The translations under genes were made by a program, and so were the position numbers. Below are positions 3,087-24,113 of a stretch of 49,589 bases of DNA, piece after piece. The notes beneath the pieces were generated by a model, which saw only the letters and a program-made list of their open reading frames with translations, had not been told where the DNA came from and made no database searches. The stretch is from an uncultured Candidatus Saccharibacteria bacterium (GTDB lineage Bacteria > Patescibacteriota > Minisyncoccia > Phycocordibacterales > UBA9973): the NCBI GenBank assembly GCA_964502615.1, contig CAZCXF010000005.1:3956-53544 (forward strand), written 5' to 3'. The stretch's first letter is position 1. Every line of letters begins with the position of its first letter.

Positions 3087-4313
3087 ATGTTTAAGAATAA
3101 AATATTAATCACAATATTTCTGACTGTATTTATCGATCTATTAGGGATCGGTATTTTGATACCTGTTATACCTCAACTATTTGCAAATCCTCTGTCTTCT
3201 GAATATATGCTCCCTTTAGGTACATCTATAAACCAAGGATACTTACTATTAGGTCTTTTGATTGCGGTATATCCAATAGGTCAGTTTTTAGCTACACCAA
3301 TACTAGGTCAGTTATCAGACAAATATGGAAGAAAGAAAATATTGGGAGTATCACTTTTTGGGACAGCCATATCATATGTTTTATTTGCTTTAGCTATCGT
3401 AACAAAAAATATCCCACTCCTATTTTTTTCAAGATTCTTTGACGGAGTAACTGGTGGAAATATTTCAATTGCTCAAGCAATGATAGGGGATGTATCAAAA
3501 CCAGAAAATAGAGCAAAGAATTTCGGTATGCTAGGTGCTGCTTTTGGTCTTGGTTTTATATTTGGACCTTTTATAGGAGGCAAACTATCTGATCCATCTC
3601 TTGTATCATGGTTTAACTCCGCTACACCTTTTTATTTTGCAGCAATACTTGCTTTTATAAATATGCTATCGGTCTTATTTTTAGTTCCTGAGACAAACAA
3701 AAATTTATGGAAAGAGAAGTTAACTATAGGTAAATCTTTTTCTAATATAAAGAAGGCCATGGAGATGAAAGGGGTAAGTACTATATTTGTTACAAACTTT
3801 CTTTTCTTTGGAGGTTTTACTTTTTTCACGACATTCTTTGGAGTTTTTCTCATAGATAGATTTGGATTTAGCCAAGGTAATATTGGTGACTTTTTTGCTT
3901 ATGTTGGAATCTGGAGCGTATTTACTCAAGCAGTGATGACTAGGATTTTTGCAAGACATTTTACTGAGCCACAAATTATTCGCTACACATTAATTGGAGC
4001 TGGTATATTAATCCTTGCGTATTTCTTGCCTACTAAATCTTGGGAGCTGTTTTTGATACCCCCATTTTTCTCTATATGTACAGGACTTACAATGGCCAAT
4101 ATTAATAGTCTACTTTCTAAAGCCTCTCCACCAGATCAAAGAGGGGAAATCATGGGTATAAGCTCTTCAGTCCAAGCTCTTGCTCAAGCAATACCTGCGA
4201 TACTCTCTGGATTTATTGCTGCAAGTCTTGCCCCCACAACTCCACTAATAGTAGCTTCAATATTGGTAATATTCTCAGGATTGGCTTTTAGATTCTTGTA
4301 TAAAAAGGGCTAA
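3087..4313 (+). CDS. MFS transporter (TetA/TCR-like efflux family)
   Basis: 12-TM profile. MFS motif A-like [13 protein letters not shown] and TetA-type [22 protein letters not shown]. Confidence 0.8.
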
Positions 4314-4333
4314 AATGTATACTTAATGTATAT

Positions 4334-6118
4334 ATGAATACGGAAGTCCGAAACTGCCAGAATTGCAAAAATAACTTCACTATCGAACCTGATGATTTTT
4401 CTTTCTATGAGAAGATGAAAGTACCGGCTCCTACTTTTTGCCCAGCATGTCGTACTCAAAGACGCTGGGCATTTCGCAATGAACGAGGATTATATAAAAG
4501 AAAGTGTGATTATTCAGGAAAAGAAATTTTCTCTATGTATGCCCCAGATTCTCCAGTTAAAGTATATGATCGCGATATATGGATATCAGATGTATGGGAC
4601 CCACTAGACTATGGACGTGAGATTGATTGGTCAAAACCGTTTTTAACTCAATTACATGAGCTCATGCTTGATGTACCATTTAAATCAAATAATGTAATTC
4701 GCGGGGTAAACAGTGATTACTCTAACAATGCAACTGATCCAAAGAATTGTTACTTAGTTTTTAATACTACTGTTCCAGAAGATTGCATGTATTCAAATGG
4801 ATTAAACTATTCGAGAGAATGTGTTGATGTTTCTCATGTATCTAAATGTGAGACTTGTTATCAAAGTTTCTGGTTGGGTTCATGTTATAGAGCAAATTAC
4901 TGTTCTCAATGTGTGGATTCAAGTGACCTATGGTTTTGTAAGGATTGTCAGGGGTGTATGAACTGTTTCGGTTCAGTTAATCTTAGAAATAAAAATTATC
5001 ATTTCTTTAATGAACAACTTTCAAAAGAGGATTATGAAAAAAGAGTAGAAGAATATAATTTACATACTCGTGAAGGAGTAGAGAGAGCTTTTAAAGATAC
5101 CCATGAATTTTGGAAAAAATTTCCTAACAAAAACCATCAAGGAATCAAAAACGTAGATTGTACAGGTTCCTATGTCAGTAACTCAAAAAATGTTAAAGAC
5201 TCTTTTCTTGTGCGAGAGAGTGAAAATATGCGCTACTGCCAATACATACAAGAGACTCCTGGGTCAAAAGATTGTTATGACTACTCAAACTGGGGCTGTG
5301 GAGCAGAACTAGTATATGAATCTATATCTTGTGGTAATGGAGTACAGAATCTTAAATTTACTTGGCTTACTCAAGAGAGTGCTCACGATGCTGAATATAC
5401 AATTGCTTGTTTTGGTTCGAGCTATCTTTTTGGGTGTGTAGGTATACGTAAAAAAGAATACTGTATTTTGAATAAACAATATACCAAAGAAGAATATTTT
5501 GAACTTGTAGAAAAAATTAAAAAACATATGGACGAAATGCCATACGTAGATAAAGTCGGACATATTTATAGATACGGAGAATTTCTTCCATCTGAGATGA
5601 GTCCATGGGCTTATAATGAAACAATTGCGCAAGAATATTTCCCTCTAACAAAAGAACAAGCTATTGCAAAAGGTTATCGATGGAGAGACCCAGATGTAAA
5701 AGATTATAAGCCAACATTACCATCAGATAATATTCCAAATGATATTACTCAAGTTGATGAATCAATAACAAAAGAAATAATAGAGTGTGCACACAAAGGG
5801 GAGTGTAATCAAGGGTGCACAAAGGCATTCCGAATTATTCCTGATGAGTTAGCTTTTTATAAAAAGATTGGTGTGCCACTTCCAACTTTATGTCCGGCAT
5901 GTCGTACTATCGAGAGATTAAAACTAAGATTAGGAGTTGAATTATACGATAGTACTTGTATGTGCAATGGAACTCAATCAAAGGATAGTATTTATAAAAA
6001 CCAGGTTGCACATCCGCATGGAGATGTTTCTTGTGAGAATAAATTTAAAACAGGATTTAAACCAGATCACGGAGATCTAGTATACTGCGAGAGTTGTTAT
6101 CAGCAAGAAGTAGATTAA
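4334..6118 (+). CDS. Cysteine-rich protein with terminal zinc-ribbons, paralog A (uncharacterised family)
   Basis: 594 aa ORF. N-terminal CQNCKNNFTIEPDDFSFYEKMKVPAPTFCPACRTQRR, Cys-dense centre, C-terminal AFRIIPDELAFYKKIGVPLPTLCPACR and YCESCYQQEV. Clear paralog of the next two ORFs and of 16988-18724. Confidence 0.85.
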   Translation: MNTEVRNCQNCKNNFTIEPDDFSFYEKMKVPAPTFCPACRTQRRWAFRNERGLYKRKCDYSGKEIFSMYAPDSPVKVYDRDIWISDVWDPLDYGREIDWSKPFLTQLHELMLDVPFKSNNVIRGVNSDYSNNATDPKNCYLVFNTTVPEDCMYSNGLNYSRECVDVSHVSKCETCYQSFWLGSCYRANYCSQCVDSSDLWFCKDCQGCMNCFGSVNLRNKNYHFFNEQLSKEDYEKRVEEYNLHTREGVERAFKDTHEFWKKFPNKNHQGIKNVDCTGSYVSNSKNVKDSFLVRESENMRYCQYIQETPGSKDCYDYSNWGCGAELVYESISCGNGVQNLKFTWLTQESAHDAEYTIACFGSSYLFGCVGIRKKEYCILNKQYTKEEYFELVEKIKKHMDEMPYVDKVGHIYRYGEFLPSEMSPWAYNETIAQEYFPLTKEQAIAKGYRWRDPDVKDYKPTLPSDNIPNDITQVDESITKEIIECAHKGECNQGCTKAFRIIPDELAFYKKIGVPLPTLCPACRTIERLKLRLGVELYDSTCMCNGTQSKDSIYKNQVAHPHGDVSCENKFKTGFKPDHGDLVYCESCYQQEVD

Positions 6119-6120
6119 TC

Positions 6121-7812
6121 ATGGAAACAAGAAACTGCCAAAACTGCAAAAATGATTTCACCATCGAGCTAGATGACATTTCTTTCTATGAGAAGATGAA
6201 AATACCATTACCAACATGGTGTTTTGAATGTAGACAACAACGTAGATATGCTTGGCGAAACGAACGAACTTTATACAGAAGAACTTGTGATCTTTGTCAA
6301 AAAAGTATGGTTACAATATATTCACCCAATAAACCTTTCAAGGTTTATTGTAACGAGTGTTGGTGGAGTGATAATTGGGATTCATCCTCGTATGGGAAAG
6401 ATTTTGATTTCTCGAGACCATTTTTTGAACAGTTTTCTGAATTACAGCATGAGGTACCTCGTATGGCGCTTTTGAATAAAAATAGTACCAACTCCGAGTA
6501 CACTAATCATTCTGGAAATAATAAGAATGTTTACATGTCATTTTGTTCTTTCGACGGAGAAAATATTATGTATAGCACTTGGACAATGAAAAATTGTCGA
6601 GACCTGATGGATTGCGGTTTTATTGCTGAAAAAGGGGAGAGACTATATGAAGTTATCGATTCGCGCACCTCATACCAATGTCAGTATGGTATTTTCTTGA
6701 AAGATTGCTCCTCTTGTTATTATTGCTACGACTGCAAAGGTTGTACAGATTGTTTCATGTCTTCAAATTTACGTAATAAAAGTTATGTATTTAAAAATGA
6801 ACAATATACTAGAGAAGAGTATTTAGAGAAAATAAAAGAGTTTGATCTATCTTCTTACCAAACTCGTGAAAACTTAAATAAAGACTTTGAAGATTTGCTT
6901 AAAAATCACTCAATACATCGATATGTCATTAGTGAAAGAAATATAAATTCTACTGGATCTCTACTTTTTGATTGTAAAAATATTATTAATTCTTTTGAAG
7001 TAGATAAAGGAGAAAATTGTAAATATATTTATGGAGGTATTGATATAAAAGATTCTATGGATATTTACCACGTAGGATACAATATTGAGCTATGTTATGA
7101 GTGCCAAGGGTGTACAAGAATTCCTAACTGCCAGTTTTGCCATCTTTGTTACGACGATATGAATGTAATGTATTCTGACACGTGTCAGAATAGTCAGAAT
7201 CTTTTTGGTTGCGTTTCGGTTAAGAAAGGAGAATATATGATTTTTAATAAAAAATATACCAAAGAAGAGTATAGTTCTCTAAAAGAAAAAATTATTGAAC
7301 ATATGAGACAAACAAAAGAATATGGAGAATTTTTTCCACCTTCAATAGCGCCAGTTTATTATAATGAAACTCAAGGAAATCTTTATGACCCACTAACAAA
7401 AGAAGAAGTTTTAGCAAAAGGTTGGCAATGGGAAGATAACCTTCCTGGAACTTTTGGAAAAGAAACAATTTCCCATATGAATATTCCAGATAGAATTGAA
7501 GATATATCTGATGAATACTTAAAAGAAATTTTTGCATGTTTATTATGTTCAAAAAATTATAATATCACACGCGATGAAATTACTTTTTATCGAAAAGAAA
7601 ATATTCCACTACCAAGGAAGTGTCCTAATTGTCGATACAAAAGGAGGTTTGATCTCCGTCCGCTTAGGAAACTTTGGCACAGATCATGTATGTGTGAAAA
7701 ATCTAGTCATAACCATGAAGGAAAATGTCCAATTGAATTTGAAACTAGTTATGCCCCTGATCGGTCGGAGGTAATATATTGTGAGCAATGTTATCAACAA
7801 GAAGTTTTATAA
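6121..7812 (+). CDS. Cysteine-rich protein with terminal zinc-ribbons, paralog B
   Basis: ATG at 6121 gives METRNCQNCKNDF, matching the paralog N-termini, 2 nt after the stop of paralog A. I count 37 Cys. The ORF-track start at 6094 lies inside paralog A and is rejected. Confidence 0.85.
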   Translation: METRNCQNCKNDFTIELDDISFYEKMKIPLPTWCFECRQQRRYAWRNERTLYRRTCDLCQKSMVTIYSPNKPFKVYCNECWWSDNWDSSSYGKDFDFSRPFFEQFSELQHEVPRMALLNKNSTNSEYTNHSGNNKNVYMSFCSFDGENIMYSTWTMKNCRDLMDCGFIAEKGERLYEVIDSRTSYQCQYGIFLKDCSSCYYCYDCKGCTDCFMSSNLRNKSYVFKNEQYTREEYLEKIKEFDLSSYQTRENLNKDFEDLLKNHSIHRYVISERNINSTGSLLFDCKNIINSFEVDKGENCKYIYGGIDIKDSMDIYHVGYNIELCYECQGCTRIPNCQFCHLCYDDMNVMYSDTCQNSQNLFGCVSVKKGEYMIFNKKYTKEEYSSLKEKIIEHMRQTKEYGEFFPPSIAPVYYNETQGNLYDPLTKEEVLAKGWQWEDNLPGTFGKETISHMNIPDRIEDISDEYLKEIFACLLCSKNYNITRDEITFYRKENIPLPRKCPNCRYKRRFDLRPLRKLWHRSCMCEKSSHNHEGKCPIEFETSYAPDRSEVIYCEQCYQQEVL

Positions 7813-7815
7813 TCT

Positions 7816-9519
7816 ATGGAAACAAGAAATTGCCAAAATTGTAAAAATGATTTCAACATCGAACCAGATGATTTTTCGTTCTATGAGAAGATCAAAGTTC
7901 CTCCACCAACGTTTTGTGTAGAATGCAGGATGAAAAGGCGTATGGTTTGGCGCAATGTACGTTCTCTTCATAGAAGGGAATGTGGTATGTGTAATAAGTC
8001 TATTATATCTATGTATAAAGACGATGGGGTACCTGTATATTGTACAGAATGCTGGTTTGGGGGGAATTATGATTTATTTAAATACGGCAGGGAATATGAT
8101 TTCTCAAGGTTATTCTTTACACAGTTAAAAGAACTTTTCAATAAAGTTCCAAGATATTTTGCGTATAAAGCTGGAACATTAGTAAATTCTGATTACACTA
8201 ATTTTACTGTTGATAATAAAAATGCTTACTTGTCTTTTTCCATAGTTGGGTGTGAAGATATATCCTATAGTGAAGTAATTGATAAATCAAAAAATAGCAT
8301 GGATTGCTATGCTGTAGTAAAAATGGATGGATGTTATCAAAACATAGATTGTGAAGGAAATTATAATACTTACTATGCTGTTAAATCTCAATCATGTATT
8401 GACTCATCTTTTGTTTACGATTGTGTAAATTGTCAGAATTGTTGCTTGTCATCAAATCTAAGAAATAAGCAATATTATTTTAATAATCAAAAATTAAGCA
8501 AAGAAGAATATCAAAAAGCAGTTGCTGATTTACAACTAAGAACAAATACTGGGATACAAAATACTAAAAAATATTTTGATGAAGAAATTTTAAAAAATGC
8601 AATTCATAAATTTTCATATTCTTATGCTAATGTGGATGCCACAGGGGACTACTTGAATCATTGTAAAAATACAAAATTTTGTTTTGATGCTTATGATGCA
8701 GAAAATATAAAATATGCTTGTCGAACTTTTGATTCGAAAGACTGTATGGATTTGCAAGGTGTTGGTGGTGGAGAATTAATTTACGATACTGTTGCTGCAA
8801 GTTGGGGAACTTACAAAGATTATTTTTGCTACATAACACTTGGTTGTAAAGAATGCGAATATTCTTTGAATTTAAAAAACTGCTCTAATTGTTTTGGATG
8901 TGTAGGATTAATGAATGCAAAATATTGTATTTTTAATAAACAATACGAAAAAGAAAAATATTTTGAAATTGTTAAGAAAATTAAACAACATATGAAAGAT
9001 ATGCCATATATAGATAGTATGGGACGTATATTTTCTTATGGTGAATATTTCCCATTTGATATGTGTCCTTTTGGTTACAATGAAGGAAATTCAAATGACG
9101 GATTTCCAATCTCAAAAGATGAAGCTATTAGTATGGGATACCCATGGTATGAGAGAGAAAAAAGAGATTATCAAATTACGATAAATTCACAAGATTTACC
9201 CGATAGTATTGATGATATATCAGATAATATCACTCAAGAAGTCATTAGTTGCCCCAATGGCGGCTATGCAGAGTTTCAATGTACAGTAGCCTTTCGCATA
9301 ACCCCTGAAGAATTATCTTTTTATCGTCAAAAAGGACTTCCTTTGCCTAGATATTGTCCAAATTGTCGTCACTATGAGCGTCTTAAATACAGAAATCCTA
9401 TGAAATTATATAAAAGAACTTGTAGTAATGGTTGTGGAAGAGAATTTGAGACTACTTATGCTCCAGATAGGCCTGAGAGAGTCTATTGTGAGCAGTGTTA
9501 TCAGGCTGAGGTTCTCTAA
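7816..9519 (+). CDS. Cysteine-rich protein with terminal zinc-ribbons, paralog C
   Basis: Starts METRNCQNCKNDFNIEPDDFSFYEKIKVPPPTFCVECR, 3 nt after the stop of paralog B. Same architecture, ends YCEQCYQAEVL. Confidence 0.85.
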   Translation: METRNCQNCKNDFNIEPDDFSFYEKIKVPPPTFCVECRMKRRMVWRNVRSLHRRECGMCNKSIISMYKDDGVPVYCTECWFGGNYDLFKYGREYDFSRLFFTQLKELFNKVPRYFAYKAGTLVNSDYTNFTVDNKNAYLSFSIVGCEDISYSEVIDKSKNSMDCYAVVKMDGCYQNIDCEGNYNTYYAVKSQSCIDSSFVYDCVNCQNCCLSSNLRNKQYYFNNQKLSKEEYQKAVADLQLRTNTGIQNTKKYFDEEILKNAIHKFSYSYANVDATGDYLNHCKNTKFCFDAYDAENIKYACRTFDSKDCMDLQGVGGGELIYDTVAASWGTYKDYFCYITLGCKECEYSLNLKNCSNCFGCVGLMNAKYCIFNKQYEKEKYFEIVKKIKQHMKDMPYIDSMGRIFSYGEYFPFDMCPFGYNEGNSNDGFPISKDEAISMGYPWYEREKRDYQITINSQDLPDSIDDISDNITQEVISCPNGGYAEFQCTVAFRITPEELSFYRQKGLPLPRYCPNCRHYERLKYRNPMKLYKRTCSNGCGREFETTYAPDRPERVYCEQCYQAEVL

Positions 9520-9706
9520 AGGGGAAATATTTTCTCTAAAATTACACAAAAATTTTAGAATATTTTTATAATTTTTAAACTGCGAATTTTTATCAAATTT
9601 TGTCTGAAAATAGACTTAAGTTTGAACGATTTTTAGACCTAGAGTCAAACAGTTATTGACGTGGGTCAAACATTTAGACATAGTTTTGTATTTTATAGTT
9701 ATTCAC

Positions 9707-9786: not shown

Positions 9787-12120
9787 ATGCCTTCAAAAAA
9801 GACTGTGTCAAACAAGAAAAAGGTCGCGAGTGTTAAAGTTCTTTCTGTTCCAGAAAAAACATCAAACAAGAATAATTTTATTAAAAGTGTTCAAAAAAGA
9901 GACGGTGTCATTGTCCCTTTTGATATAGAAAAGATAGTGAATGCTATTAATAAAGCTATGCTTGCTTCAGATGAAGGCTCTATGAAGGAGGCAGAGATGG
10001 TAGCTAATAGAGTTGTTATGGAATTAGTCAAAATAACTAAGCGCCACAAGAACTTTATACCAACAGTTGAAGGTGTACAGAACACAGTCGAACAAGAATT
10101 GATGCTTGCTGACTATGTAAAAACTTCTAAAAATTATATTCTCTACCGTGAAGAACGTGCACGCCTACGCGCACACAGTATTGTAGTACCAGAGCGTGTG
10201 AAAAAACTTGCAGATGAGAGTAAAAAATATTTCCGCAATCCACTTTCTGAATTTGTTTACTACAGAAGTTATGCGAAATGGATTGAAGAAGAGGGAAGAC
10301 GTGAGACATGGATCGAGACAATCGATCGCTACATTGGTTTCATGAAAAAAAATCTTGGCAACAAACTAAAAGAATCTGAATACAAAGAAATTCGTGAAGC
10401 AATTCTAAAACAAGAAGCTATGCCATCAATGCGATTATTGCAATTTGCTGGTCCTGCGGCTGAGAAGACAAATGTTTGTGCATACAACTGTTCATTCATC
10501 GCACCTTCACGTTTTGAAGACTTCGGAGAAATAATTTACATCTCAATGTGTGGAACAGGAGTAGGATTCTCAGTTGAGAGTAAAAATATTCAAGCACTTC
10601 CTCAAATAAAAAACCAAACAGGAAAAAAACTTCCAACTTTTGTTGTACCAGATACAAAAGAAGGTTGGGCTGATGCTTTTGTTCTAGGTATGAAGACATG
10701 GTTTAACGGTGAAGATATAAATTTTGATTTCTCTCAATTGAGGCCTGCAGGTGCTCGTCTTAAAATAATGGGTGGTAAGAGTTCAGGACCTAAGCCGCTT
10801 ATCGACTTACTTGGGTTTACTCGCGAAAGAATCTTGAAGCGCCAAGGGCGCCATCTTCGAAATATCGATGCACATGACATAATCTGTAAGATTGGTGAAT
10901 GTGTGGTTTCTGGAGGAGTTCGCCGTAGTGCCCTTATTTCACTATCTGATTTAGATGATCAGGATATGCGTGATGCTAAAAATGGCCAATTCTGGCTAAA
11001 TGAAGGTCAGAGAATGCTAGCTAATAACTCAGCAGTCTATAATACAAAACCTACAGAGACAGAATTCCTGAAAGAATGGATTGCCCTTATGGAATCAGGC
11101 TCTGGGGAGAGAGGAATATTTAATCGTGGTGCACTTACTACATCACTACCAAAACGTCGTCTAGAGGTTTCTAAAAATTATATTGGTGAGATGGGAACAA
11201 ACCCTTGCGGGGAAATAATCTTGCGCTCAAGACAATTTTGTAACCTATCAGAAGTTGTTGCACGTTCTGAAGATACAGAAGCAACACTTATGAAGAAAAT
11301 TCGTATCGCTACAATACTTGGAACTTACCAATCAACTCTTACAAAATTCGGCTATCTTTCAAAAGAATGGAAGGACAATTGTGAAGCAGAAAGATTGCTC
11401 GGAGTTTCTGTTACAGGGCAATGGGATTCAACAGTTGCAAGAAATGGTGATATGTTGAAAAAATTAAGAAACGAAGCAATTCGTGTTAATAAAATTTATG
11501 CAAAACGTTTTGGTATAAATGAATCAACATGCATAACTTGCGTTAAGCCATCAGGAACAGTTTCTCAGACAGTAGATTGTGCATCAGGTATGCATCCAAG
11601 ACATGCACCATACTACATTCGTCGTGTTCGTATCTCTGCAACAGATTCACTATTTAAAATGATGAAAGACCAAGGTGTACCTTACTATCCAGAAGTAGGT
11701 CAATCAGTGGATAGTGCAAATACTTTTGTTTTAGAGTTTCCAATGAAAGCACCAGACGGAGCAATATGTAAGGATGATATTTCTGCAATTGACCAGCTTG
11801 AACACTGGAAAGTTGTAAAAGTAAATTACACTGAACACAATCCTTCAGTTACAGTGTCTGTAGGAGAGAATGAATGGATTCAAGTTGCACATTGGCTTTA
11901 TCAAAACTGGGAAATAGTAGGAGGACTTTCATTTTTGCCACGCTCAGACCATGTTTATCAACTTGCTCCGTATGAAGCCATTGATGAGAAAACGTATAAA
12001 GCATTAACAAGTAAAATGCCGGAGTTTGATTTCTCAAAAATTGTCACTTATGAACTTCGTGACGAAACTGAAGTTAAAAAGGAACTTGCGTGTGTTGCTG
12101 GAGTTTGTGATATAGTCTAA
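9787..12120 (+). CDS. nrdJ: Class II (adenosylcobalamin-dependent) ribonucleotide reductase, RTPR-like, with N-terminal ATP-cone
   Basis: Lys-rich tail, then ATP-cone (VQKRDGVIVPFDIEKIVNAINKA). Core has the thiyl-radical loop GTNPCGEI and FCNLSEV. C-terminal redox pair CVAGVC has the C-x4-C spacing of Lactobacillus leichmannii RTPR. Confidence 0.85.
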   Translation: MPSKKTVSNKKKVASVKVLSVPEKTSNKNNFIKSVQKRDGVIVPFDIEKIVNAINKAMLASDEGSMKEAEMVANRVVMELVKITKRHKNFIPTVEGVQNTVEQELMLADYVKTSKNYILYREERARLRAHSIVVPERVKKLADESKKYFRNPLSEFVYYRSYAKWIEEEGRRETWIETIDRYIGFMKKNLGNKLKESEYKEIREAILKQEAMPSMRLLQFAGPAAEKTNVCAYNCSFIAPSRFEDFGEIIYISMCGTGVGFSVESKNIQALPQIKNQTGKKLPTFVVPDTKEGWADAFVLGMKTWFNGEDINFDFSQLRPAGARLKIMGGKSSGPKPLIDLLGFTRERILKRQGRHLRNIDAHDIICKIGECVVSGGVRRSALISLSDLDDQDMRDAKNGQFWLNEGQRMLANNSAVYNTKPTETEFLKEWIALMESGSGERGIFNRGALTTSLPKRRLEVSKNYIGEMGTNPCGEIILRSRQFCNLSEVVARSEDTEATLMKKIRIATILGTYQSTLTKFGYLSKEWKDNCEAERLLGVSVTGQWDSTVARNGDMLKKLRNEAIRVNKIYAKRFGINESTCITCVKPSGTVSQTVDCASGMHPRHAPYYIRRVRISATDSLFKMMKDQGVPYYPEVGQSVDSANTFVLEFPMKAPDGAICKDDISAIDQLEHWKVVKVNYTEHNPSVTVSVGENEWIQVAHWLYQNWEIVGGLSFLPRSDHVYQLAPYEAIDEKTYKALTSKMPEFDFSKIVTYELRDETEVKKELACVAGVCDIV

Positions 12121-12130
12121 TATCAAATAT

Positions 12131-12658
12131 ATGAATAAAAATTGGTCAAAGTACATACTCGGTTTTATAGGGGTGCTATTTATTCGCCTAATACCTTTTC
12201 GTGCCCCAAATATTGAGCCAATATTAGCAGCTCAAATGCCTTTTGCTAGAAAATACGGTGTTTTTTCATCATTTCTATTTGGATTCTTAAGTATTACTAT
12301 ATATGACCTATTTACCTCTGGAATTGGTGTTTGGACTTTGGTCACAGCTATCGCTTATGGATTGTTAGGTATTGGAGCATCATACTTCTTAAAAAATAGG
12401 TCTGGTTGGAAGAATTATGCTATATACGCTATTATTGGAACTATTTTATATGATGCTGTTACTGGACTTACTATTGGACCAATATTCTTCGATCAACCAT
12501 TCATAGCATCTTTGATCGGCCAAATACCTTTTACAGCTCTCCACTTGCTTGGTAACGTATCATTTGCTATTATTCTCTCACCTGTTATTGAAATGTGGAT
12601 TAGCAAGGAAACAAAATCAGTTATGTCTGTTAACGGGAAAGTAGTTTTAAACAGTTAG
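12131..12658 (+). CDS. Small polytopic membrane protein, ECF S-component/DUF6580-like; candidate vitamin (cobalamin?) transporter
   Basis: 175 aa with about 6 TM helices. The RLIPFRAPNIEPI motif before TM2 resembles solitary S-component-type vitamin carriers. Starts 10 nt after the nrdJ stop. Confidence 0.4.
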   Translation: MNKNWSKYILGFIGVLFIRLIPFRAPNIEPILAAQMPFARKYGVFSSFLFGFLSITIYDLFTSGIGVWTLVTAIAYGLLGIGASYFLKNRSGWKNYAIYAIIGTILYDAVTGLTIGPIFFDQPFIASLIGQIPFTALHLLGNVSFAIILSPVIEMWISKETKSVMSVNGKVVLNS

Positions 12659-12679
12659 TGTCTTTAAAAATTTAACCTA

Positions 12680-12762
12680 TTGTGTTTGGAAGTGAGGTGA
12701 AATTCCTCCACTGTGCCGCAACGGTAAAGCTCTAAATGAGACGAGTCCGATCTTAACACTCT
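12680..12762 (+). promoter_or_regulatory. Cobalamin riboswitch aptamer (compact form)
   Basis: GGAAGUGAGGUGAAAUUCCUCCACUGUGCCGCAACGGUAA core, short CUCUAAAUGAG hairpin, and a B12-box-like GAGUCCGAUCUUAACAC whose AACAC pairs with the upstream GUGUU (P1). Confidence 0.75.
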
Positions 12763-12806
12763 AGTGTGCATCCCGAGCAGGAACAGATTTTTTGTAAACT
12801 CTTTAT

Positions 12807-12846
12807 AAAAACTCCTCTGATTTCTATTCGGAGGAGTTTTTATTTT
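12807..12846 (+). terminator. Riboswitch expression platform: intrinsic terminator
   Basis: AAAAACTCCTC (12807-12817) pairs with GAGGAGTTTTT (12831-12841), followed by ATTTT. The 3' arm contains GGAGGAG about 12 nt before the ATG at 12847. Confidence 0.7.
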
Positions 12847-13257
12847 ATGAAAAAGAAAATATCAAAAATAATAATATCGACAATCATAGCACTAACTTTT
12901 TTTATTAGTGGGGAATTTGCTCTAGCTAAGACTGCGCATTCAATAAAAAAAGTTTCAGTGAAAGAAAATTTTATAACTATACAGGTTCTTGATAATACTT
13001 ATCAGGCTTCATATAAAGATGGTCAATCTTTATATGAAGTCATGAAAAATCTTGCAGATAAAAAAAATAGTAATTTTTCTTTTCATTCAAAAAATTACTC
13101 AGGACTAGGTAACTTTATAGATGAGATAAATGGAATAAAAGGAACTAAGGGGCGTTATTGGATTTATTATATTAATAACAAAAAGGCATCGGTAGGCGTA
13201 TCAAAATATTTTGTTAAGAATGGAGATATTATCAAATGGAGTCAAGAAGGAATTTAA
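12847..13257 (+). CDS. Secreted DUF4430 (transcobalamin-like C-terminal domain) protein
   Basis: Start taken at MKKKISKIIISTIIALTFFISG (signal/anchor), because the ORF-track start at 12766 would run through the riboswitch. The GLGNFIDEINGIKGTKGRYWIYYINNKKASVGVSKYFVKNGDIIKW pattern is typical of DUF4430. Confidence 0.75.
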   Translation: MKKKISKIIISTIIALTFFISGEFALAKTAHSIKKVSVKENFITIQVLDNTYQASYKDGQSLYEVMKNLADKKNSNFSFHSKNYSGLGNFIDEINGIKGTKGRYWIYYINNKKASVGVSKYFVKNGDIIKWSQEGI

Positions 13258-13261
13258 TACC

Positions 13262-15376
13262 ATGAAAACACAAAAAATTTTAGTAGCTATAGTTTTAATT
13301 TTTACTTTTATATCTTTTTCACAAATATCTTATGCTGATATTGTAGATACAAATCCGCCAGTGATTACTCTAATTGGTTCACCTACAGTAAATATAAATG
13401 TAGGGGATACATACAATGACGAAGGTGCAACTGCTCTTGATGATGTAGATGGAGATATAACAGTAAATATTGTAAAAACTGGATCTGTTGATACCACTTT
13501 AGCTGGTAGTTATACTATAAATTTTGATGTATCTGACAGTGCTCATAACAACGCTACTACTGTAAGTAGGACAATTATTGTAAACGAAGTACAACAAACT
13601 CCAAAAGAAACTATCTTTATAAGAAACGGTGACAGTGTTGTATATAGTGGAAATATAGATTTACCTGTACAAGGTAATGTAGATATAACAGACAATTCTG
13701 GTGTTGTTCACCAAGTGAATAATAGAAGTGTACTTGGTTTTTTGTATGCTCTTGACCAAACGTCTGATTCTTTTTCACTTTCTAATCTCCAATACTATGA
13801 TTCTTTTTCTTCATTTTATATAAAATGTATTACTCCAAGTGGGACAAGTGAACTCTGTGATAGTTGGCAATATGTAGTAGGAGGAACAAGTCCATGGACT
13901 AGTGTCGATAGCACTTTTCTTACTGGAGGAGAAACTATAGCATTATATTTTGGCAATCCTTATCGTGTTAATCTAAGTAGTACCAATATAACTACATCTG
14001 ATACTATCACTGCGAAATCAGAATCTTACAACTATACAGATAATACATGGAGTGTTCGCACTGGAGTAACAATAGGAGTAACAGTTCCAAACCCGAACGA
14101 TCCCTGGAACCCTAATGTTGTTTCAACTTATCCAGTAGATACGAATGGAGAAGCAATCCTTTCTTTTACCACAGAAGGTACTTATACGGTTGGAATCTCA
14201 GAAGATTACTATTTTCCTTCATATACAGTAATAGTAAGCAAAACTTCCGGGGGCGGCGGCGGGGGCGGCGGAACTCCAACTTCTATATCAATACCCCAAG
14301 CCCTAGCTTTCTTGGCTAGTAACCAAAAACCTAATGGTTCGTTTGGTGATATGCTCTATACAGATTGGGCAGCTATAGCGATATCAGGAGCTGGAAGCCA
14401 AGCACAAAGTTTAAGGGGTAAAATATTTGATTATCTAAAAAATAATCCTTATCAATCAAATACTTTAACTGACAACGAAAGACACGCAATGGCTCTAATG
14501 TCTTTAGGGATTAATCCTTATTCTGATACTGGTACAGATTATATAAAAAAAATTACTAATTCCTTTGATGGAACTCAGTTTGGTGACTCTTCACTTTATA
14601 ACGATGACATATTTGCGATAATTGTTTTATCTAAAGCAGGGTTTACTTCAAATGATGAAATTATAAAAAAAGATGTGAGTTTTATAATTTCTAAACAACA
14701 AGGAGATGGATCTTGGGGAAGTGTAGATATGACAGGGGCAGGAATTCAAGCTCTACGTTCATTTTCAGATCTATCAGGTGTATCTCAATCTATAACTTTA
14801 GCCGAGAGTTATTTGGTAAATTCTCAGGATGGAGGAGGTGGATTTGGTAATTCTTCATCAACAAGTTGGGCAATGCAAGCTCTGTCTATGAATGGAGGTC
14901 TTAGTTCTAAAGTTACAAGTGCAGATAAATATTTAGCTCAACTTCAAGACAAAGATGGAGGACTCGATTCTACAGGTTCACTTGAAAATAGAATTTGGTC
15001 AACGTCTTATGCAATACCAGCATCACTACATGTTTCTTGGAATAGTATTTTGCAATCTTTTTTAAAACAAAGTAATTCAAATGGAGATATCAATAATAAT
15101 CCAACCCCAGCACCTATTCCAGTAATTACTCAGATAAAGACTGAAGATCCTATTAAAAAAGTTACTGACGATGTAAAGCCAGTTATAAAAAAGAAAAAGA
15201 AGTTAAAAAATACTGATAAGAAAGAAGCACTCCAAGCCTCTGAAAAAAATAACCCATTAACTGCATCTGCAGCAGATGCTCTATCTAGCGAGAGTCCATC
15301 CCCATCAGTTTTTAGGAGGATTATAAACGCTATCGAATCTCCATTTGTCTGGCTTTTCGTTAAACTTGGATTTTGA
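13262..15376 (+). CDS. Large surface protein: signal peptide, DUF5011 Ig-like domain, DUF4430-like domain, Ig-like spacer, Gly8 linker, prenyltransferase/terpene-cyclase-like alpha/alpha repeats, Lys-rich tail and C-terminal hydrophobic anchor
   Basis: Start at MKTQKILVAIVLIFTFISFSQISYA. DTNPPVITLIGS...GATALDDVDGDIT...GSYTINFDVSDSAHN matches DUF5011. CDSWQYVVGG...LTGGETIALYFG is DUF4430-like. Repeats LASNQKPNGSFGD, IISKQQGDGSWGS, LVNSQDGGGGFGN and LAQLQDKDGGLDS are of the squalene-cyclase/prenyltransferase type. Ends ...FVWLFVKLGF. Confidence 0.7.
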   Translation: MKTQKILVAIVLIFTFISFSQISYADIVDTNPPVITLIGSPTVNINVGDTYNDEGATALDDVDGDITVNIVKTGSVDTTLAGSYTINFDVSDSAHNNATTVSRTIIVNEVQQTPKETIFIRNGDSVVYSGNIDLPVQGNVDITDNSGVVHQVNNRSVLGFLYALDQTSDSFSLSNLQYYDSFSSFYIKCITPSGTSELCDSWQYVVGGTSPWTSVDSTFLTGGETIALYFGNPYRVNLSSTNITTSDTITAKSESYNYTDNTWSVRTGVTIGVTVPNPNDPWNPNVVSTYPVDTNGEAILSFTTEGTYTVGISEDYYFPSYTVIVSKTSGGGGGGGGTPTSISIPQALAFLASNQKPNGSFGDMLYTDWAAIAISGAGSQAQSLRGKIFDYLKNNPYQSNTLTDNERHAMALMSLGINPYSDTGTDYIKKITNSFDGTQFGDSSLYNDDIFAIIVLSKAGFTSNDEIIKKDVSFIISKQQGDGSWGSVDMTGAGIQALRSFSDLSGVSQSITLAESYLVNSQDGGGGFGNSSSTSWAMQALSMNGGLSSKVTSADKYLAQLQDKDGGLDSTGSLENRIWSTSYAIPASLHVSWNSILQSFLKQSNSNGDINNNPTPAPIPVITQIKTEDPIKKVTDDVKPVIKKKKKLKNTDKKEALQASEKNNPLTASAADALSSESPSPSVFRRIINAIESPFVWLFVKLGF

Positions 15377-15388
15377 TATAATAGCTAT

Positions 15389-15952
15389 ATGAAACTAAAA
15401 TTTATAGGACTTGTAGTAGTTGTAATATTATTTGTAATTGGTTTGGGGGTTTTTATGAACAAGCAATCATCCGCTCCTAGTAAGTATGATGACTTTGCTA
15501 AAGCTCTAAAAACAGAAGAGGCTCAATTTTATGGAGCTTTTTGGTGTCCACATTGTAAAGCAGTGAAAGAATTATTTGGTAATGCTAAAAGATATTTACC
15601 TTATATTGAATGTTCTAACCCAGATCAAACAGTAACTAAAGTATGTGTAGATAATAAAATTGAAAGTTACCCAACTTGGAAATTTAAAAATGGTATAACA
15701 ATAGCCTCAAAAGGCGATCCACTTATATGTCCTATCAGATCTGAGAAACCATACAAAGATGCAATTTGTGATCAAACTGGATCTCAATTTTATCGAACAT
15801 GGATTTTCCCAGAATATAAGTTTTCTATAAAAAGTCCTACCGATCCAATAAGTAAAGATGGCGTTTGGAAATTTGCACCTGAGGCAGAAGTAACAGGGGA
15901 GACACCACTTGAATTCTTAGCCGCACAAATTGGATTTAATCTTCCTAAATAA
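15389..15952 (+). CDS. Membrane-anchored thioredoxin-like oxidoreductase (VKOR-associated Trx type)
   Basis: N-terminal TM helix. FYGAFWCPHCKAVKELFGNAKRYLPYIECS...SYPTW closely resembles the Trx-like domain fused to bacterial VKOR. Confidence 0.75.
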   Translation: MKLKFIGLVVVVILFVIGLGVFMNKQSSAPSKYDDFAKALKTEEAQFYGAFWCPHCKAVKELFGNAKRYLPYIECSNPDQTVTKVCVDNKIESYPTWKFKNGITIASKGDPLICPIRSEKPYKDAICDQTGSQFYRTWIFPEYKFSIKSPTDPISKDGVWKFAPEAEVTGETPLEFLAAQIGFNLPK

Positions 15953-15953
15953 T

Positions 15954-16505
15954 ATGCCATCATATATTGAAAATTTTAACCAACTGCTGTCTGTAGGAAC
16001 AGTAATTCTACACGTGGTGATATTATTGATTGTAATAAATCTAGCTTTTCTTAGATCACACAATAATAAAGTTCTAATTTTCTTTAAAAAATATACTTTC
16101 TATTTTGGGTTTGCTACAGCTCTTGCATCTGTAGCTCTGTCGCTGTTTTATTCCGAAATAATTGGTTTTCCTCCTTGTGAGCTTTGTTGGATTCAAAGAA
16201 TTTTCCTATATCCACAAGTAATACTTTTTGGAATGGAACTTTATAAACGTGAGAGAGTAATAGTTGATTATAGTATGGTTATGGCAACCTTCGGGATGAT
16301 TGTCTCGCTATTCCATATGTATATTGAACGTGGAGGATCATCCTCCCTTGCTTGCGCTGTTGGAGGAAAAGCTGCTATATCTTGTGCAAAAATATATGTT
16401 GAAGAATTCTCATACGTGACTATACCGGTCATGGCGCTAACAGCATCTGTTTTTATATTTATACTCCTACTCAATTACAAATACATGACTCGTAACAAGA
16501 TTTAG
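15954..16505 (+). CDS. dsbB: Disulfide bond formation protein B (BdbC/DsbB family)
   Basis: Four TM helices. FYSEIIGFPPCELCWIQRIFLYPQ is near-identical in pattern to Bacillus BdbC. A second Cys pair (CAVGGKAAISC) sits in loop 2. Start at MPSYIENF, 1 nt after the upstream stop. Confidence 0.8.
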   Translation: MPSYIENFNQLLSVGTVILHVVILLIVINLAFLRSHNNKVLIFFKKYTFYFGFATALASVALSLFYSEIIGFPPCELCWIQRIFLYPQVILFGMELYKRERVIVDYSMVMATFGMIVSLFHMYIERGGSSSLACAVGGKAAISCAKIYVEEFSYVTIPVMALTASVFIFILLLNYKYMTRNKI

Positions 16506-16987: not shown

Positions 16988-18724
16988 ATGGAATCACAAA
17001 ATAAAATATGCCAAAACTGCAAACAAAACTTCATCATAGAATCCGAAGATTTTTCTTTCTATGAAAAAATAAAAGTTCCTCCACCTACATTTTGTTCAAA
17101 TTGTTCTCATCAACGTAGATTTGCTTGGCGAAATACGCACTCCCTGTATCATAGACCAGACTCAATAACAGGGAAAGATTTAATTTCTATCTATCATCCT
17201 GAAACGAAGATGAATATTGTCGATCAAAAGTACTGGTGGAGTGACAAATGGGATCCATTTGAATATGGCAAAAAGTATGATTTCTCTAAAGATTTTTTTA
17301 CTCAATGGAAAGAACTTAGAGATAAGGTTCCATTTCAAGCATTATCTAATTCAAAAGCTGTGAATAGTGAATATTGCAACGTAGCTGAAGAAAGCTATGA
17401 TTGCTATCTTATTTCAGCTTGCTGGAAAAATGAGCGGGTTATGTATGCTGATTCGTTAGTTAAAGTAAAAGACTCTATGGATCTTTATATTGTAGAAGAA
17501 AGTGAGTTTTGCTATGAGGATATTTATTGCAAGGAATCTTATAGGTTGTTTTATAGCCAAGAATGTAATTCGTGCACAGATTCTTATTTTTTATATGATT
17601 GCAGAGGTTGTGTAGATTGTTTTATGTCTTCAAATTTAAGGAATAAGAGTTATGTTTTTAACAACATCCAACTCTCAAAAGAAGAATACTTTGAAAAAAT
17701 TAAACAATATGATTTAGGAAGTTTTTCTGTAATTAAAAGATTGAAAGGGGATTTTGAAGAATTAAAAAACAATTCAATAAGAAAATTCGCCACCATTACT
17801 AATAGTCAAGAAGTAACTGGCGATCATATTTATAATACTTATAACTCTAAAAATGTTTTCGATGTTTCTGATAATGTTAAAAACTCAAAACATTTATTCT
17901 GGTCAGTAAACAATATTTTTGACTGCTATTATTCCAATGCTGTTGGTGCGATTGAAAATAGTTTTGAAATGAATGATGCTGGTGTTGGCGGGTTATTATG
18001 CAGATTTTCTAGCGTAGTGTACTCTTCAACTGAAGTTGATTATTCTTTCAATTGTTATAACTGTCATAATATTTTCGGTTGCATAGGACTTCAAAATAAA
18101 TCTTATTGTATTTTAAACACACAATATACAAAAGAGGAGTATATGGATTTACTGCCAAAAATAAAAGAACAAATGATAAATATTCCGTACATAGATCAAA
18201 AGGGTAGATCTTATAAATATGGAGAATTTTTTCCAATAGAACTATCTCCTTTTTCATATAATGAAACTGTAGCAAATGATTTCTTTCCTTTAACAAAAGA
18301 GGAAATATACAACTTAGGATATAAGTATAGAGAAAAAGAGAGTAGAGATTATAAACCCACACTACTATCTTCTAACATTCCAGATAGTGTTTTGGAAATA
18401 AACGAAAGTATTATAAATGAAGTTATAAGTTGTGATACATTACCTGGTTCAGATAGATGTACAATAGCATTTAAAATTAGACCAGATGAATTGATTTTTT
18501 ATAAGCGTTTTAATATACCCATACCTAGAAGATGTTATCAGTGCAGACACAAGCAACGTTTTTTACAAAGAAACCCTTTAAAACTATGGCATAGGTCATG
18601 TATGTGTGAAAAAGAGGGACATAAACATGCTGGGAAGTGCCAGATAGAGTTTGAGACAAGCTATAGTCCTGAACGTCCAGAGATTATCTACTGTGAAAAG
18701 TGCTATCAACAAGAGGTGATATGA
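16988..18724 (+). CDS. Cysteine-rich protein with terminal zinc-ribbons, paralog D
   Basis: Starts 1 nt after the cutA stop. CQNCKQNFIIESEDFSFYEKIKVPPPTFCSNC at the N-terminus, CVDCFMSSNLRNKSYVF in the centre, LWHRSCMCEKEGHKHAGKCQIEFETSYSPERPEIIYCEKCYQQEVI at the C-terminus (closest to paralog B). Confidence 0.85.
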   Translation: MESQNKICQNCKQNFIIESEDFSFYEKIKVPPPTFCSNCSHQRRFAWRNTHSLYHRPDSITGKDLISIYHPETKMNIVDQKYWWSDKWDPFEYGKKYDFSKDFFTQWKELRDKVPFQALSNSKAVNSEYCNVAEESYDCYLISACWKNERVMYADSLVKVKDSMDLYIVEESEFCYEDIYCKESYRLFYSQECNSCTDSYFLYDCRGCVDCFMSSNLRNKSYVFNNIQLSKEEYFEKIKQYDLGSFSVIKRLKGDFEELKNNSIRKFATITNSQEVTGDHIYNTYNSKNVFDVSDNVKNSKHLFWSVNNIFDCYYSNAVGAIENSFEMNDAGVGGLLCRFSSVVYSSTEVDYSFNCYNCHNIFGCIGLQNKSYCILNTQYTKEEYMDLLPKIKEQMINIPYIDQKGRSYKYGEFFPIELSPFSYNETVANDFFPLTKEEIYNLGYKYREKESRDYKPTLLSSNIPDSVLEINESIINEVISCDTLPGSDRCTIAFKIRPDELIFYKRFNIPIPRRCYQCRHKQRFLQRNPLKLWHRSCMCEKEGHKHAGKCQIEFETSYSPERPEIIYCEKCYQQEVI

Positions 18725-20496: not shown

Positions 20497-20501
20497 TTAC
20501 A

Positions 20502-21719
20502 ATGAAATTTAGCTATAAAATACAAAATAAAGTTGGTGGAGTGATTGAAGGAGTAAAAGAAGCTCCTGATAAATTTACTCTTGCTCGTGAACTCAGGGAG
20601 AGCGGTAATATTCCTCTGTCTATTGAAGAATACACAGATAAAGGACAAAAGGGTAGTTTCTTAAAATTTGAATTGTTCAACAGTGTATCTTTATCTGAGA
20701 AGATAATTTTTACGAATAATTTAGGGGGAATGTTATCCGCAGGACTTTCACTTACTCGTGCACTCAATATTCTTGAGAAGCAAACAAAAAATAACTTACT
20801 AAAAAGAATACTGGGAAGCATAATTGAAGGAATAAATGGTGGTAGTACAATGTCAGACTCAATGAAGAAATTTCCAAAAGTTTTCTCACCATTGTTTATA
20901 TCTATGGTTCACTCAGGAGAGGAGTCTGGAGGTTTACCGAAAGCTTTAGCTGAAGTTGGGATGAATCTAAAAAAATCTTACGATTTAAACAAAAAAATCA
21001 AAGGGGCTTTAATGTATCCAAGTATAATTCTCTGTGCAATATTTATTATTGGAGTTCTAATGATGGTTTTTGTGGTGCCAACACTTACCAAAACTTTCAA
21101 AGAATTAGGAGGAGACTTACCTAGTTCTACCAAATTTGTTATATGGTTATCGGATACTTTAAGTCAGCACACCCTAATGTTTTTAGGTATAACATTTTTA
21201 GTTGTTGGTTCTTTTGTTATGTTTGCAAGATCAAAATTTACTCAAAAATATTTTGATTCATTTGTTTTAAAGTTACCAGTCATTGGTAATATCGCAAAAG
21301 AAGTAAATACTGCCCGTACTGCTAGAACTTTATCTTCATTACTCACTTCTGGAGTAGATATGTCTCGCGCATTAGCTATTACCGAAGAAGTACTACAAAA
21401 TATTCATTACAAAAAATTAGTACAAGATGCAATTGTATCAATTGAAAAAGGTGGAGTACTCTCGGCATCTTTTAAAAACGCAACTCACCTGTATCCTATT
21501 ATGATGGGAGAAATGATTGAAGTTGGTGAGGAGACTGGGAATCTCTCAAAAATGCTTATAGATATTGCTAATTTCTATGAAAGTGAAGTTGATAATAAAA
21601 CTAAAGACTTGTCTGTAATTATTGAACCAATACTCATGGTCTTTATTGGAGGTGCGGTAGGATTTTTTGCAGTCTCGATGATCACACCTATGTACTCTGT
21701 GATGAGTAACATAAAATAA
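20502..21719 (+). CDS. pilC: Type IV pilus platform protein (PilC/GspF)
   Basis: Two T2SSF-type repeats, each followed by TM segments. 405 aa, 5 nt after pilB. Confidence 0.85.
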   Translation: MKFSYKIQNKVGGVIEGVKEAPDKFTLARELRESGNIPLSIEEYTDKGQKGSFLKFELFNSVSLSEKIIFTNNLGGMLSAGLSLTRALNILEKQTKNNLLKRILGSIIEGINGGSTMSDSMKKFPKVFSPLFISMVHSGEESGGLPKALAEVGMNLKKSYDLNKKIKGALMYPSIILCAIFIIGVLMMVFVVPTLTKTFKELGGDLPSSTKFVIWLSDTLSQHTLMFLGITFLVVGSFVMFARSKFTQKYFDSFVLKLPVIGNIAKEVNTARTARTLSSLLTSGVDMSRALAITEEVLQNIHYKKLVQDAIVSIEKGGVLSASFKNATHLYPIMMGEMIEVGEETGNLSKMLIDIANFYESEVDNKTKDLSVIIEPILMVFIGGAVGFFAVSMITPMYSVMSNIK

Positions 21720-21721
21720 AT

Positions 21722-22081: not shown

Positions 22082-22084
22082 ATT

Positions 22085-24111: not shown

Positions 24112-24113
24112 TT

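Follow-up and report, generated by a model that had tools for sequence, protein, structure and literature searches.

The closest described counterparts of the proteins analyzed here are small zinc-finger families and the right-handed β-helix of TmAFP. PF13451 (zf_Tbcl, formerly zf-trcl), PF23477 (zf_Tbcl_2) and TIGR04272 are known families of probable treble-clef fingers, themselves functionally uncharacterised, and small CxxC-x17-CxxC proteins of Methanosarcina were found by inductively coupled plasma mass spectrometry to bind Zn (PMC12704099). In TmAFP of Tenebrio molitor (PDB 1EZG), an in-out-out pattern on a 12-residue coil has been documented (PMC8038014). We compared these with four paralogous, cysteine (Cys)-rich proteins (copies A–D) encoded in 49,589 nucleotides (nt) of DNA from an uncultured Candidatus Saccharibacteria bacterium (contig CAZCXF010000005.1, positions 3,956–53,544), hereafter the window. 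The analysis revealed that each protein has the layout Z-M1-M2-L-Z (double finger module, two central domains, aromatic linker, double finger module), and that the copies belong to a very large family, found in named records almost only in Patescibacteria and without a characterised relative. The genomes of Patescibacteria rank among the smallest known in bacteria.

The four genes, with lengths in amino acids (aa), are as follows:
4334–6118, forward strand: copy A, 594 aa, 35 Cys (5.9%); finger 2 lost, long His-containing insert in the last finger
6121–7812, forward strand: copy B, 563 aa from its ATG start, 37 Cys (6.6%); four terminal Zn sites (predicted) all intact
7816–9519, forward strand: copy C, 567 aa, 37 Cys (6.5%); most conserved subtype; residue numbers and both structure models are based on it
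16988–18724, forward strand: copy D, 578 aa, 29 Cys (5.0%); finger 2 lost

The listing of open reading frames (ORFs) gave the same coordinates as a first-pass annotation of this DNA, made by a model from the letters alone, with three ORFs separated by 2 nt (A/B) and 3 nt (B/C) and a fourth copy at 16988–18724. Its statement that the four are paralogs held: copy A is 41–44% identical to copies B, C and D in a four-way alignment, and BLASTP aligned A with D at 40% identity (E = 3e-154), placing the paralogy far above chance as judged from the sequences, and all five elements listed as shared are present in that alignment. Its count of 37 Cys in copy B (given as ~6.5%) and its estimate that the family takes up ~7 kb, or ~14%, of the window were likewise reproduced (37 Cys, 6.6%; 6,918 nt, 13.95%). 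The 31 other genes of this AT-rich window (GC 30–38%) have a mean Cys content of 0.61%, against 5.0–6.6% in copies A–D. All four ORFs are intact and keep the invariant residues of the family, and orthologs of copy C were found at 57–80% identity in many genomes. The highest mean hydropathy over 19 residues (Kyte–Doolittle) is at most 1.14 in copies A–D and a zinc finger begins at residue 6–8; the hydropathy profile therefore suggested no signal peptide or transmembrane segment, no dedicated predictor having been run. The earlier assertion that the proteins are cytoplasmic is consistent with this profile, and the location is not proven by it. Promoter and terminator scans around both loci returned the same counts as in shuffled sequence.

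At the ends of the proteins, the modules are located as follows:
7816–8070, forward strand: N-terminal double zinc-finger module of copy C, with the Cys sites of fingers 1 and 2
4334–4594 (A), 6121–6375 (B) and 16988–17248 (D), forward strand: equivalents of the N-terminal module
9244–9516, forward strand: C-terminal double zinc-finger module of copy C, homologous to the N-terminal module
5780–6115 (A), 7528–7809 (B) and 18422–18721 (D), forward strand: equivalents of the C-terminal module

A single ribbon had been proposed for each end; instead, each end carries two four-Cys sites, the second N-terminal one having been lost from copies A and D. In copy C the four sites are C6/C9/C34/C37, C56/C59/C76/C79, C479/C489/C514/C517 and C536/C540/C558/C561. 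Cys conservation, computed over 47 and then 509 non-redundant sequences, showed that the finger Cys are kept in 98–99% of sequences (91% for C489, C514 and C517), while finger 2 is found in 58% of family members. Since C59, C76 and C79 co-vary at r = 1.0, finger 2 is retained or lost as a whole. Between the N-terminal ~85 and the C-terminal ~90 residues, hhalign detected homology (probability 99.2, E = 1e-19). In finger 1, two CxxC knuckles surround a conserved F..FY...P segment, as is characteristic of PF13451, and C6-x2-C9, F13, I15, F22, Y23, P29, P31 and C34-x2-C37-R were invariant or near-invariant in 95 sequences. Finger 2 of copies B and C has the CxxC-~17-CxxC type of spacing (C56-x2-C59-x16-C76-x2-C79), and finger 4 reads C536-x3-C540-x17-C558-x2-C561. 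The C-terminal ribbon of copy B, described earlier as degenerate, keeps all four Cys (CxxC...CxxC). Because CxxC-x17-CxxC proteins bind Zn (PMC12704099), we infer by analogy that the four terminal fingers hold zinc. An extra C-x-C...H-x-H segment (e.g. CMCEKSSHNHEGKC) lies within the last finger of copies A, B and D, copy C being without it, and may be an additional metal site.

Comparison with curated profiles placed these fingers at the edge of the known families. PF23477 scored 15.8–18.7 bits against a cutoff of 27 and TIGR04272 15.8–16.7 bits against 36, both below threshold and both best on the last finger. For PF13451, the isolated first finger of copy C scored 15.8 bits against 24 (E = 0.014), spanning profile positions 4–44 of 48 (41/48), and its C-terminal counterpart gave no PF13451 match; the resemblance to zf-trcl that had been proposed is thus present at a sub-threshold level. 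Several orthologs elsewhere carry a precomputed PF13451 or PF23477 annotation. Since some carry a PF13451 match while the window copies score below the cutoff, the family straddles the PF13451 threshold. The likeness consists of the CxxC...F.I...FY...P.P..CxxCR pattern in the first finger of each terminal module, and of the second finger, CxxC-x16/17-CxxC with a [FY]xP..R.VYCxxC motif, which aligns with PF23477 and TIGR04272. The difference is that the window copies (15.8–18.7 bits) remain below the cutoffs of 24, 27 and 36, and that the resemblance covers ~30% of the protein, leaving the central ~380 residues unmatched. The terminal fingers are therefore borderline members of these families.

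The centre of the proteins, previously noted as Cys-dense, is indeed Cys-rich and resolves into two homologous domains, located in copy C as follows:
8152–8535, forward strand: putative solenoid domain M1 (residues ~113–240), ~8–9 rungs of 12 residues, ending in C203-x2-C206-x2-C209 in the last turn and then an NLRN...KEEY helix
8602–9000, forward strand: putative solenoid domain M2 (residues ~263–395), homologous to M1, ending in FGC(362)VGL...YC(371)IFNKQYxKEEY plus a helix

Profile–profile alignment of M1 (~100–240) with M2 (~245–395) gave a probability of 99 (E = 2e-18). Analysis of Cys frequency along the alignment columns revealed a strict 3- and 12-residue periodicity in these sequences: 97% of Cys occupancy in M1 falls on a single mod-3 register, and the autocorrelation is 0.63, 0.41, 0.45 and 0.45 at lags 3, 6, 9 and 12, is negative at the lags between, and stays positive at further multiples of 3. 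The linker showed no mod-3 Cys periodicity in the same statistics. Note that an hhalign self-comparison for fine-scale repeats gave a weak result, the periodicity coming out of the column-wise Cys statistics only. Stacking of the 12-mers yielded a rung consensus of [C/S]-x-[Y/F]-[s/c]-x-x-[C/s]-x-x-[C/S]-x-[D/N], with ~8–9 rungs per domain. Small residues occupy 66% (M1) and 60% (M2) of in-register positions and 14–22% of those off register; in M1 the in-register positions are 31% Cys and 24% Ser, the non-small rest being mainly aliphatic. Asn and Asp are abundant at the +2 position, and Tyr, Phe and charged residues at the +1 position. The second AlphaFold2 model of copy C contains isolated β-bridges exactly 12 residues apart (137/149/161/185/197/209 and 336/348/360/372). 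Copy B has six consecutive in-register Cys at the end of M1 (CSSCYYCYDCKGCTDC), and copy A an in-register CxxCxxCxxC run. Only five solenoid Cys occur in >88% of sequences: C203, C206 and C209 in the last turn of M1 (each kept in >90%), and C362 and C371 at the end of M2. At the other solenoid positions Cys is present in 8–73% of members, at most of them in <50%, and is replaced by Ser, Asn, Val or Leu.

M1 and M2 would accordingly fold as narrow four-sided β-solenoids with three residues per side, 12 per turn and a Cys/Ser ladder pointing inward. The Cys cluster in the last turn of each (C203/C206/C209 in M1; C353/C362/C371 in M2) would be a structural metal site, most simply for zinc, and the remainder of each solenoid a Cys/Ser-packed core. 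TmAFP resembles this arrangement in its tandem 12-residue units with every third residue small and inward, in its ~8 turns per domain and in a core lined with Cys and Ser. However, the family has neither sequence nor Foldseek similarity to the β-helix of TmAFP, does not match the TCTxSxNCxxAx consensus and has no TCT/TxT ice-binding face. Proteins of the TmAFP type are secreted and have a disulfide-bonded core, whereas the family has no N-terminal hydrophobic segment and its Cys positions are only partly occupied; disulfides are unlikely in it because it has no signal peptide and is probably cytoplasmic. Moreover, the family solenoid occurs twice within a ~570-aa multidomain protein with zinc-finger caps. 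The resemblance is a geometric analogy, without homology or membership.

Between M2 and the C-terminal module lies a further conserved segment:
9001–9243, forward strand: conserved aromatic linker L of copy C (residues 396–476), PYxD..YGEFFP..SPFxYNET..FPxxKEE..GYxW

Few segments are as well conserved, or modelled as confidently, as the linker. Between-subfamily minus within-subfamily entropy is highest in the solenoid bodies (104–193 and 239–358) and lowest in the fingers, caps and linker. The whole proteins are acidic (pI 5.6–5.8, net charge −5 to −13), as are the solenoids and the linker, and the terminal modules carry a net charge of +2 to +7. Among acidic residues, E147 and D163 in M1 are invariant and their M2 counterparts E296 and D312 nearly so; N422 and E423 in the linker are invariant.

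AlphaFold2 models of copy C were obtained from 47 sequences (model 1: mean predicted local distance difference test (pLDDT) 79.6, predicted template modelling score (pTM) 0.82) and from 95 sequences of several subfamilies (model 2: pLDDT 85.5, pTM 0.87). Foldseek searches of the PDB with the two models returned no neighbour (best E only 4.6 and 7.2), and against BFVD only the terminal fingers matched, to generic phage 'zinc-ribbon' proteins (best E 9e-3). Over the body of copies A–D there was no Pfam, NCBIfam, PADLOC, PDB-sequence or Foldseek match; isolated M1, M2 and linker gave no Pfam or NCBIfam match even at E = 10, and neither a single protein nor a 95-sequence profile found anything meaningful among PDB sequences. 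The first-pass annotation had not recognised the full-length architecture and had named a confident full-length match to a characterised family as one finding that would overturn it; such a match was searched for and not found, and the structure prediction it had proposed led to no PDB neighbour. Literature searches on the family, on the Pfam names and on cysteine-rich proteins of the candidate phyla radiation found no description of the family. Because ~70% of each protein lies outside Pfam, NCBIfam, PADLOC and the PDB by sequence, the model matches no PDB fold and we found no paper that describes the family, we rate it as outside every known kind of protein.

The family is large, with >8,000 clusters at 90% identity. 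A single-sequence search returned >5,358 clusters at 90% identity, a four-paralog profile at least 7,993 significant members (7,993 of the 8,000 candidates scored), and a terminal-module profile 3,234 matches among 1.84 billion 50%-identity representatives, 1,794 of them at E ≤ 1e-10 and 338 at E ≤ 1e-30. A scan of GTDB with one genome per species confirmed at least 563 loci, and orthologs of the window copies occur at 57–85% identity in many genomes. Named sources were Nomurabacteria, Paceibacterota/Pacebacteria, Liptonbacteria, Giovannonibacteria, Staskawiczbacteria and Minisyncoccia, with Gracilibacteria, Peregrinibacteria and Abawacabacteria added by a more divergent query, which confirms the patescibacterial origin assumed earlier from the letters. 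NCBI labels place two partial members (P0440 and P0485) in Woesearchaeota and Micrarchaeota (DPANN archaea), which could reflect mis-binning or real transfer. Family records are named 'hypothetical protein', apart from two NCBI entries called 'zinc-ribbon domain containing protein' and one from the Joint Genome Institute (JGI) called 'Zn ribbon nucleic-acid-binding protein'.

Natural short variants also exist: P0336 (199 aa), P0300 (185 aa) and P0302, P0313, P0353 and P0252 (359–444 aa). Some consist of the N module, linker and C module without a solenoid, as does P0336 with a short linker, and others have a single solenoid domain. The two shortest come only from contigs of 1–2.6 kb and from clusters of one or two sequences. 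The nearest relatives of P0302 (391 aa, one M domain) are ~547-aa two-M proteins of Peregrinibacteria and Gracilibacteria at 80–84% identity, so P0302 is a deletion derivative; the idea that the single-M proteins (359–444 aa) are the ancestral form was dropped for this reason.

We surveyed the arrangement of the genes in 79 GTDB loci plus the window, which together hold 206 copies, nearly all on the same strand within a locus and often overlapping or separated by a few nt. Loci contain from 1 to ~15 copies: one 17.7-kb locus has 10, and the largest array seen has ~15 head-to-tail copies in 27 kb with one interruption of ~1.5 kb (Patescibacteria bacterium AH-259-L05, contig JALLOO010000001 positions 1–26967, covered by L025 1–9776 and L069 1–17767). 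For 148 of the 151 copies having locus-mates, the nearest relative is in another genome, with a mean best identity of 62% compared with 43% to a locus-mate. Subtype orders recur (e.g. F-E-D/A and E-B), and the window triplet has the order G-E-B, with copy D belonging to subtype C. On these comparisons, the paralogs are ancient subfamilies kept in tight same-strand arrays.

Selection was estimated for copies B and C against one sister strain (L082, 94–97% DNA identity). The ratio of non-synonymous to synonymous substitution rates (dN/dS) was 0.039 in copy B (dS 0.33) and 0.054 in copy C (dS 0.16), showing strong purifying selection on the genes; a value for the 'A tail' was discarded as meaningless, the sister strain having no copy A. 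Purifying selection rather than recent gene conversion had been proposed from the first 75 nt of copies B and C, which were said to differ mostly at third codon positions. Six of the nine differing sites are third positions, as stated, with six synonymous and three non-synonymous codon changes, and the proposal itself is borne out by the dN/dS values and by the 148 copies nearest to a copy in another genome.

Alignment of L082 1–4108 (Logan SRR29870297) with window positions 4265–9660 revealed that copy A is absent from L082, where the gene after the major facilitator superfamily (MFS) transporter has the first ~27 codons of copy A fused to the body of copy B. We take this A/B chimera as the product of unequal recombination within the conserved finger 1. 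Since L082 has no copy A, copy number is polymorphic between close strains and single paralogs can be lost.

In the window, the A-B-C triplet is flanked by the MFS transporter gene and a gene for a B12-dependent class II ribonucleotide reductase (RNR), and copy D lies 1 nt after a CutA1-like gene and 14 nt before pilB (pilB-pilC). The distribution and neighbours of the family had been suggested as a check, and across genomes a grpE-[array]-dnaK setting recurs. At least nine loci have the order S13-S11-S4-RpoA-L17-L13-S9-GrpE-[array]-PaaX-like (opposite strand)-DnaK-(x)-VirD4-like ATPase, some of them with a second array after the ATPase:
L005, L011, L018, L020, L036, L037, L041, L042, L047, L070: loci with the S13...GrpE-[array]-PaaX_M-like-DnaK order

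The arrays in these loci sit in the most conserved housekeeping part of the chromosome, separating grpE from dnaK. GrpE lies upstream of 10 of 96 arrays. Other neighbours are DnaJ (four upstream, two downstream), RNR (downstream of 7 of 85), a PaaX_M-like gene (seven), CutA (three and three), and further SpoU, UvrC and RuvX.

A VirD4/TrwB/HerA-like soluble ATPase is encoded directly upstream of 11–13 of 96 arrays (11 with a finger match) and downstream of 5 of 85; it is absent from the window. Copies of it lie at these positions:
L036 13720–15681; L041 14329–16431; L011 13053–15140; L045 2130–4394; L079 6006–7988: VirD4/TrwB/HerA-like ATPase

The protein has ~650–750 aa and matches the PADLOC mad8/HerA-like model (E = 5e-14); its long tail is of low complexity, and its C-terminus carries a conserved EVPEDVLRKILE motif. 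It contains an internal zf_Tbcl_2 finger above threshold (43–48 bits). This finger, CSxCxKExTVPFKPEPGRxVYCKxCI, is of the same type as family fingers 2 and 4, with which it has the motif [FY]xP[DE]xxRxVYCxxC in common, and the taxonomic range (Paceibacteria) and chromosomal neighbourhood are as for the family. Unlike the family, it is a P-loop ATPase, lacks solenoid domains and has a disordered tail that closes with EVPEDVLRKILE. Small zinc-finger proteins considered as a separate upstream neighbour were dropped, as their zf_Tbcl_2 matches belong to this ATPase.

The reading we prefer is that the copies are housekeeping zinc-stabilised binding scaffolds, built as Z-M1-M2-L-Z with solenoids and structural zinc, and we give it a probability of about 0.4. 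The copies would be non-enzymatic, rigid and cytoplasmic. The invariant finger 1, caps, linker and C-terminal fingers would provide common docking, to a partner that all copies share or, via the mildly basic fingers, to nucleic acid, and the outward solenoid faces, variable between paralogs and conserved within orthologs, would give each paralog its own target. The task of such a repertoire would lie in the core upkeep of the cell, in the handling of protein or RNA, rather than in defence or mobility.

Several observations weigh against the scaffold proposal. Its functional part, drawn from anatomy and context, is of low confidence. Model confidence is lowest in the solenoid cores (pLDDT 59–76), and the invariant E147/D163, E296/D312 and N422/E423 could equally be a catalytic or metal site. 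The acidity argues against nucleic-acid binding by the protein body, although the mildly basic finger modules could still bind. Finally, the loss of copy A in L082 shows that individual paralogs are dispensable, and the shared synteny comes from related lineages and may be inherited rather than functional.

A bolder version, doubtful at present, would make the family a new kind of intracellular protein, in which paired ultra-narrow 12-residue β-solenoids with metal-thiolate or Ser-ladder cores instead of disulfides are clamped by duplicated double zinc fingers, and whose ancient paralogs (up to ~15 per tiny genome) form a Patescibacteria-specific housekeeping machine or scaffold, e.g. chaperone-linked or nucleoid/cytoskeletal, with no counterpart in other bacteria. 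Many tiny genomes devote several kb, and one ~26 kb, to ancient conserved paralogs of one unannotated protein, often beside ribosomal and Hsp70 genes; size, conservation and lineage-specificity suggest that this is probably a core piece of patescibacterial cell biology. If the solenoid were confirmed, it would be a new structural solution, possibly with a new type of metal site, in an apparently cytoplasmic protein. The proteins look soluble, are of ~65 kDa and come in many natural variants.

The best surviving alternative, possible although we consider it unlikely, is that the copies are target-specific nucleic-acid (most likely RNA) binding factors, in which the treble-clef or ribbon fingers bind and each paralog recognises its own site in, or processing intermediate of, an rRNA, tRNA or mRNA. 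The charge of the terminal modules and the conserved basic residues of the finger linkers (R41, R42, R46, R54, R518 and R522) are in line with it, as are the frequent RNA/DNA housekeeping neighbours (ribosomal operons, RuvX, a tRNA_bind protein, SpoU and UvrABC) and the BFVD matches of the ends, which are generic zinc ribbons of nucleic-acid proteins. The acidity of the whole proteins, and especially of the paralog-specific solenoid surfaces, speaks against it, as does the absence of a detectable known nucleic-acid-binding domain in Pfam and NCBIfam, and the JGI name that appears to favour it is an automatic label.

That the proteins handle metal or act in redox chemistry, the solenoid Cys ladder holding Zn, Fe, Cu or Fe-S for buffering, storage or electron transfer, is improbable. 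The 29–37 Cys per protein, the in-register runs of copies A and B, which would offer four thiols per turn, and the retention of the C203/C206/C209 cluster are what such a role would lead one to look for, and CutA genes adjoin arrays in six cases besides that of copy D. However, most solenoid Cys positions are less than half occupied, with a maximum of 73% once the five conserved sites are set aside, and many residues other than Cys are invariant; because the solenoid Cys are freely replaced while such residues are fixed, the number of Cys is not what selection preserves. The isolated domains gave no Fer4-type match even at E = 10 and no CxxCxxCxxxCP motif was present, the nearest ferredoxin-like pattern being CxxCxxC followed by [CF]x[SG]SNLRN.

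Similarly improbable is a self-assembling hetero-oligomer or cytoskeleton-like filament, in which solenoids stack, or the N module pairs with the C module of the next protein, and the tandem genes supply the subunits. The gaps of 2–3 nt or overlaps within arrays suggest coupled translation, the same orders of subtypes are met in different genomes, each protein has homologous ends, and P0336 joins the two modules directly by a short linker. Against this, loci vary from 1 to ~15 copies and one paralog is deleted in a near-identical strain, a poor fit to a complex of fixed stoichiometry, and P0336 is a singleton on a 2.6-kb contig.

Much less probable again is that the proteins are cargo or partners of the VirD4/TrwB-like ATPase, possibly exported to host cells as episymbiotic effectors. 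The finger-bearing ATPase adjoins some arrays and has its finger motif in common with the family, and copy D is immediately upstream of pilB-pilC. Coupling proteins carry an N-terminal membrane anchor, yet the ATPase-domain match begins near residue 30, leaving no room for one. The window has no such ATPase, the hydropathy profile of the family indicates no signal sequence, and its conservative, orthologous evolution is unlike the rapid diversification typical of effectors.

An anti-phage or inter-genomic conflict system, which the tandem arrays and strain-level gain and loss of copies superficially resemble, or a set of decaying pseudogene relics, which the first-pass annotation had named as a way to be wrong, is largely refuted by the intact ORFs with their conserved invariant residues, by ancient orthologous paralogs with dN/dS of 0.04–0.05, by the core housekeeping neighbourhoods of the arrays, and by searches that gave no match of copies A–D to PADLOC-DB 2.0 models at E ≤ 0.01, no family match by tblastn among 50,697 phage genomes and, in IMG/VR, only one fragment of 38 residues.

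Other features of the window surround the two loci. Downstream of the triplet we observed a riboswitch and its neighbours:
12662–12789, forward strand: adenosylcobalamin (B12) riboswitch (Rfam RF01482, 56.6 bits)
9787–12120, 12131–12658, 12766–13257 and 13211–15376: genes around the riboswitch

The riboswitch lies just downstream of the class II RNR gene and an ECF-S-like membrane protein gene, and directly upstream of a DUF4430 gene and a gene for a 721-aa surface protein with Ig-like and prenyltransferase-like domains; the region resembles an operon for B12 scavenging that is coupled to the B12-dependent RNR. A thioredoxin-like/DsbB pair is encoded at 15389–16505, upstream of cutA and copy D. 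Downstream of copy D, a type IV pilus cluster (18739–25934) encodes PilB and PilC, plus two opposite-strand proteins that bear N-terminal methylation motifs, one of them with CarboxypepD_reg domains. ComEC is encoded at 30090–31385.

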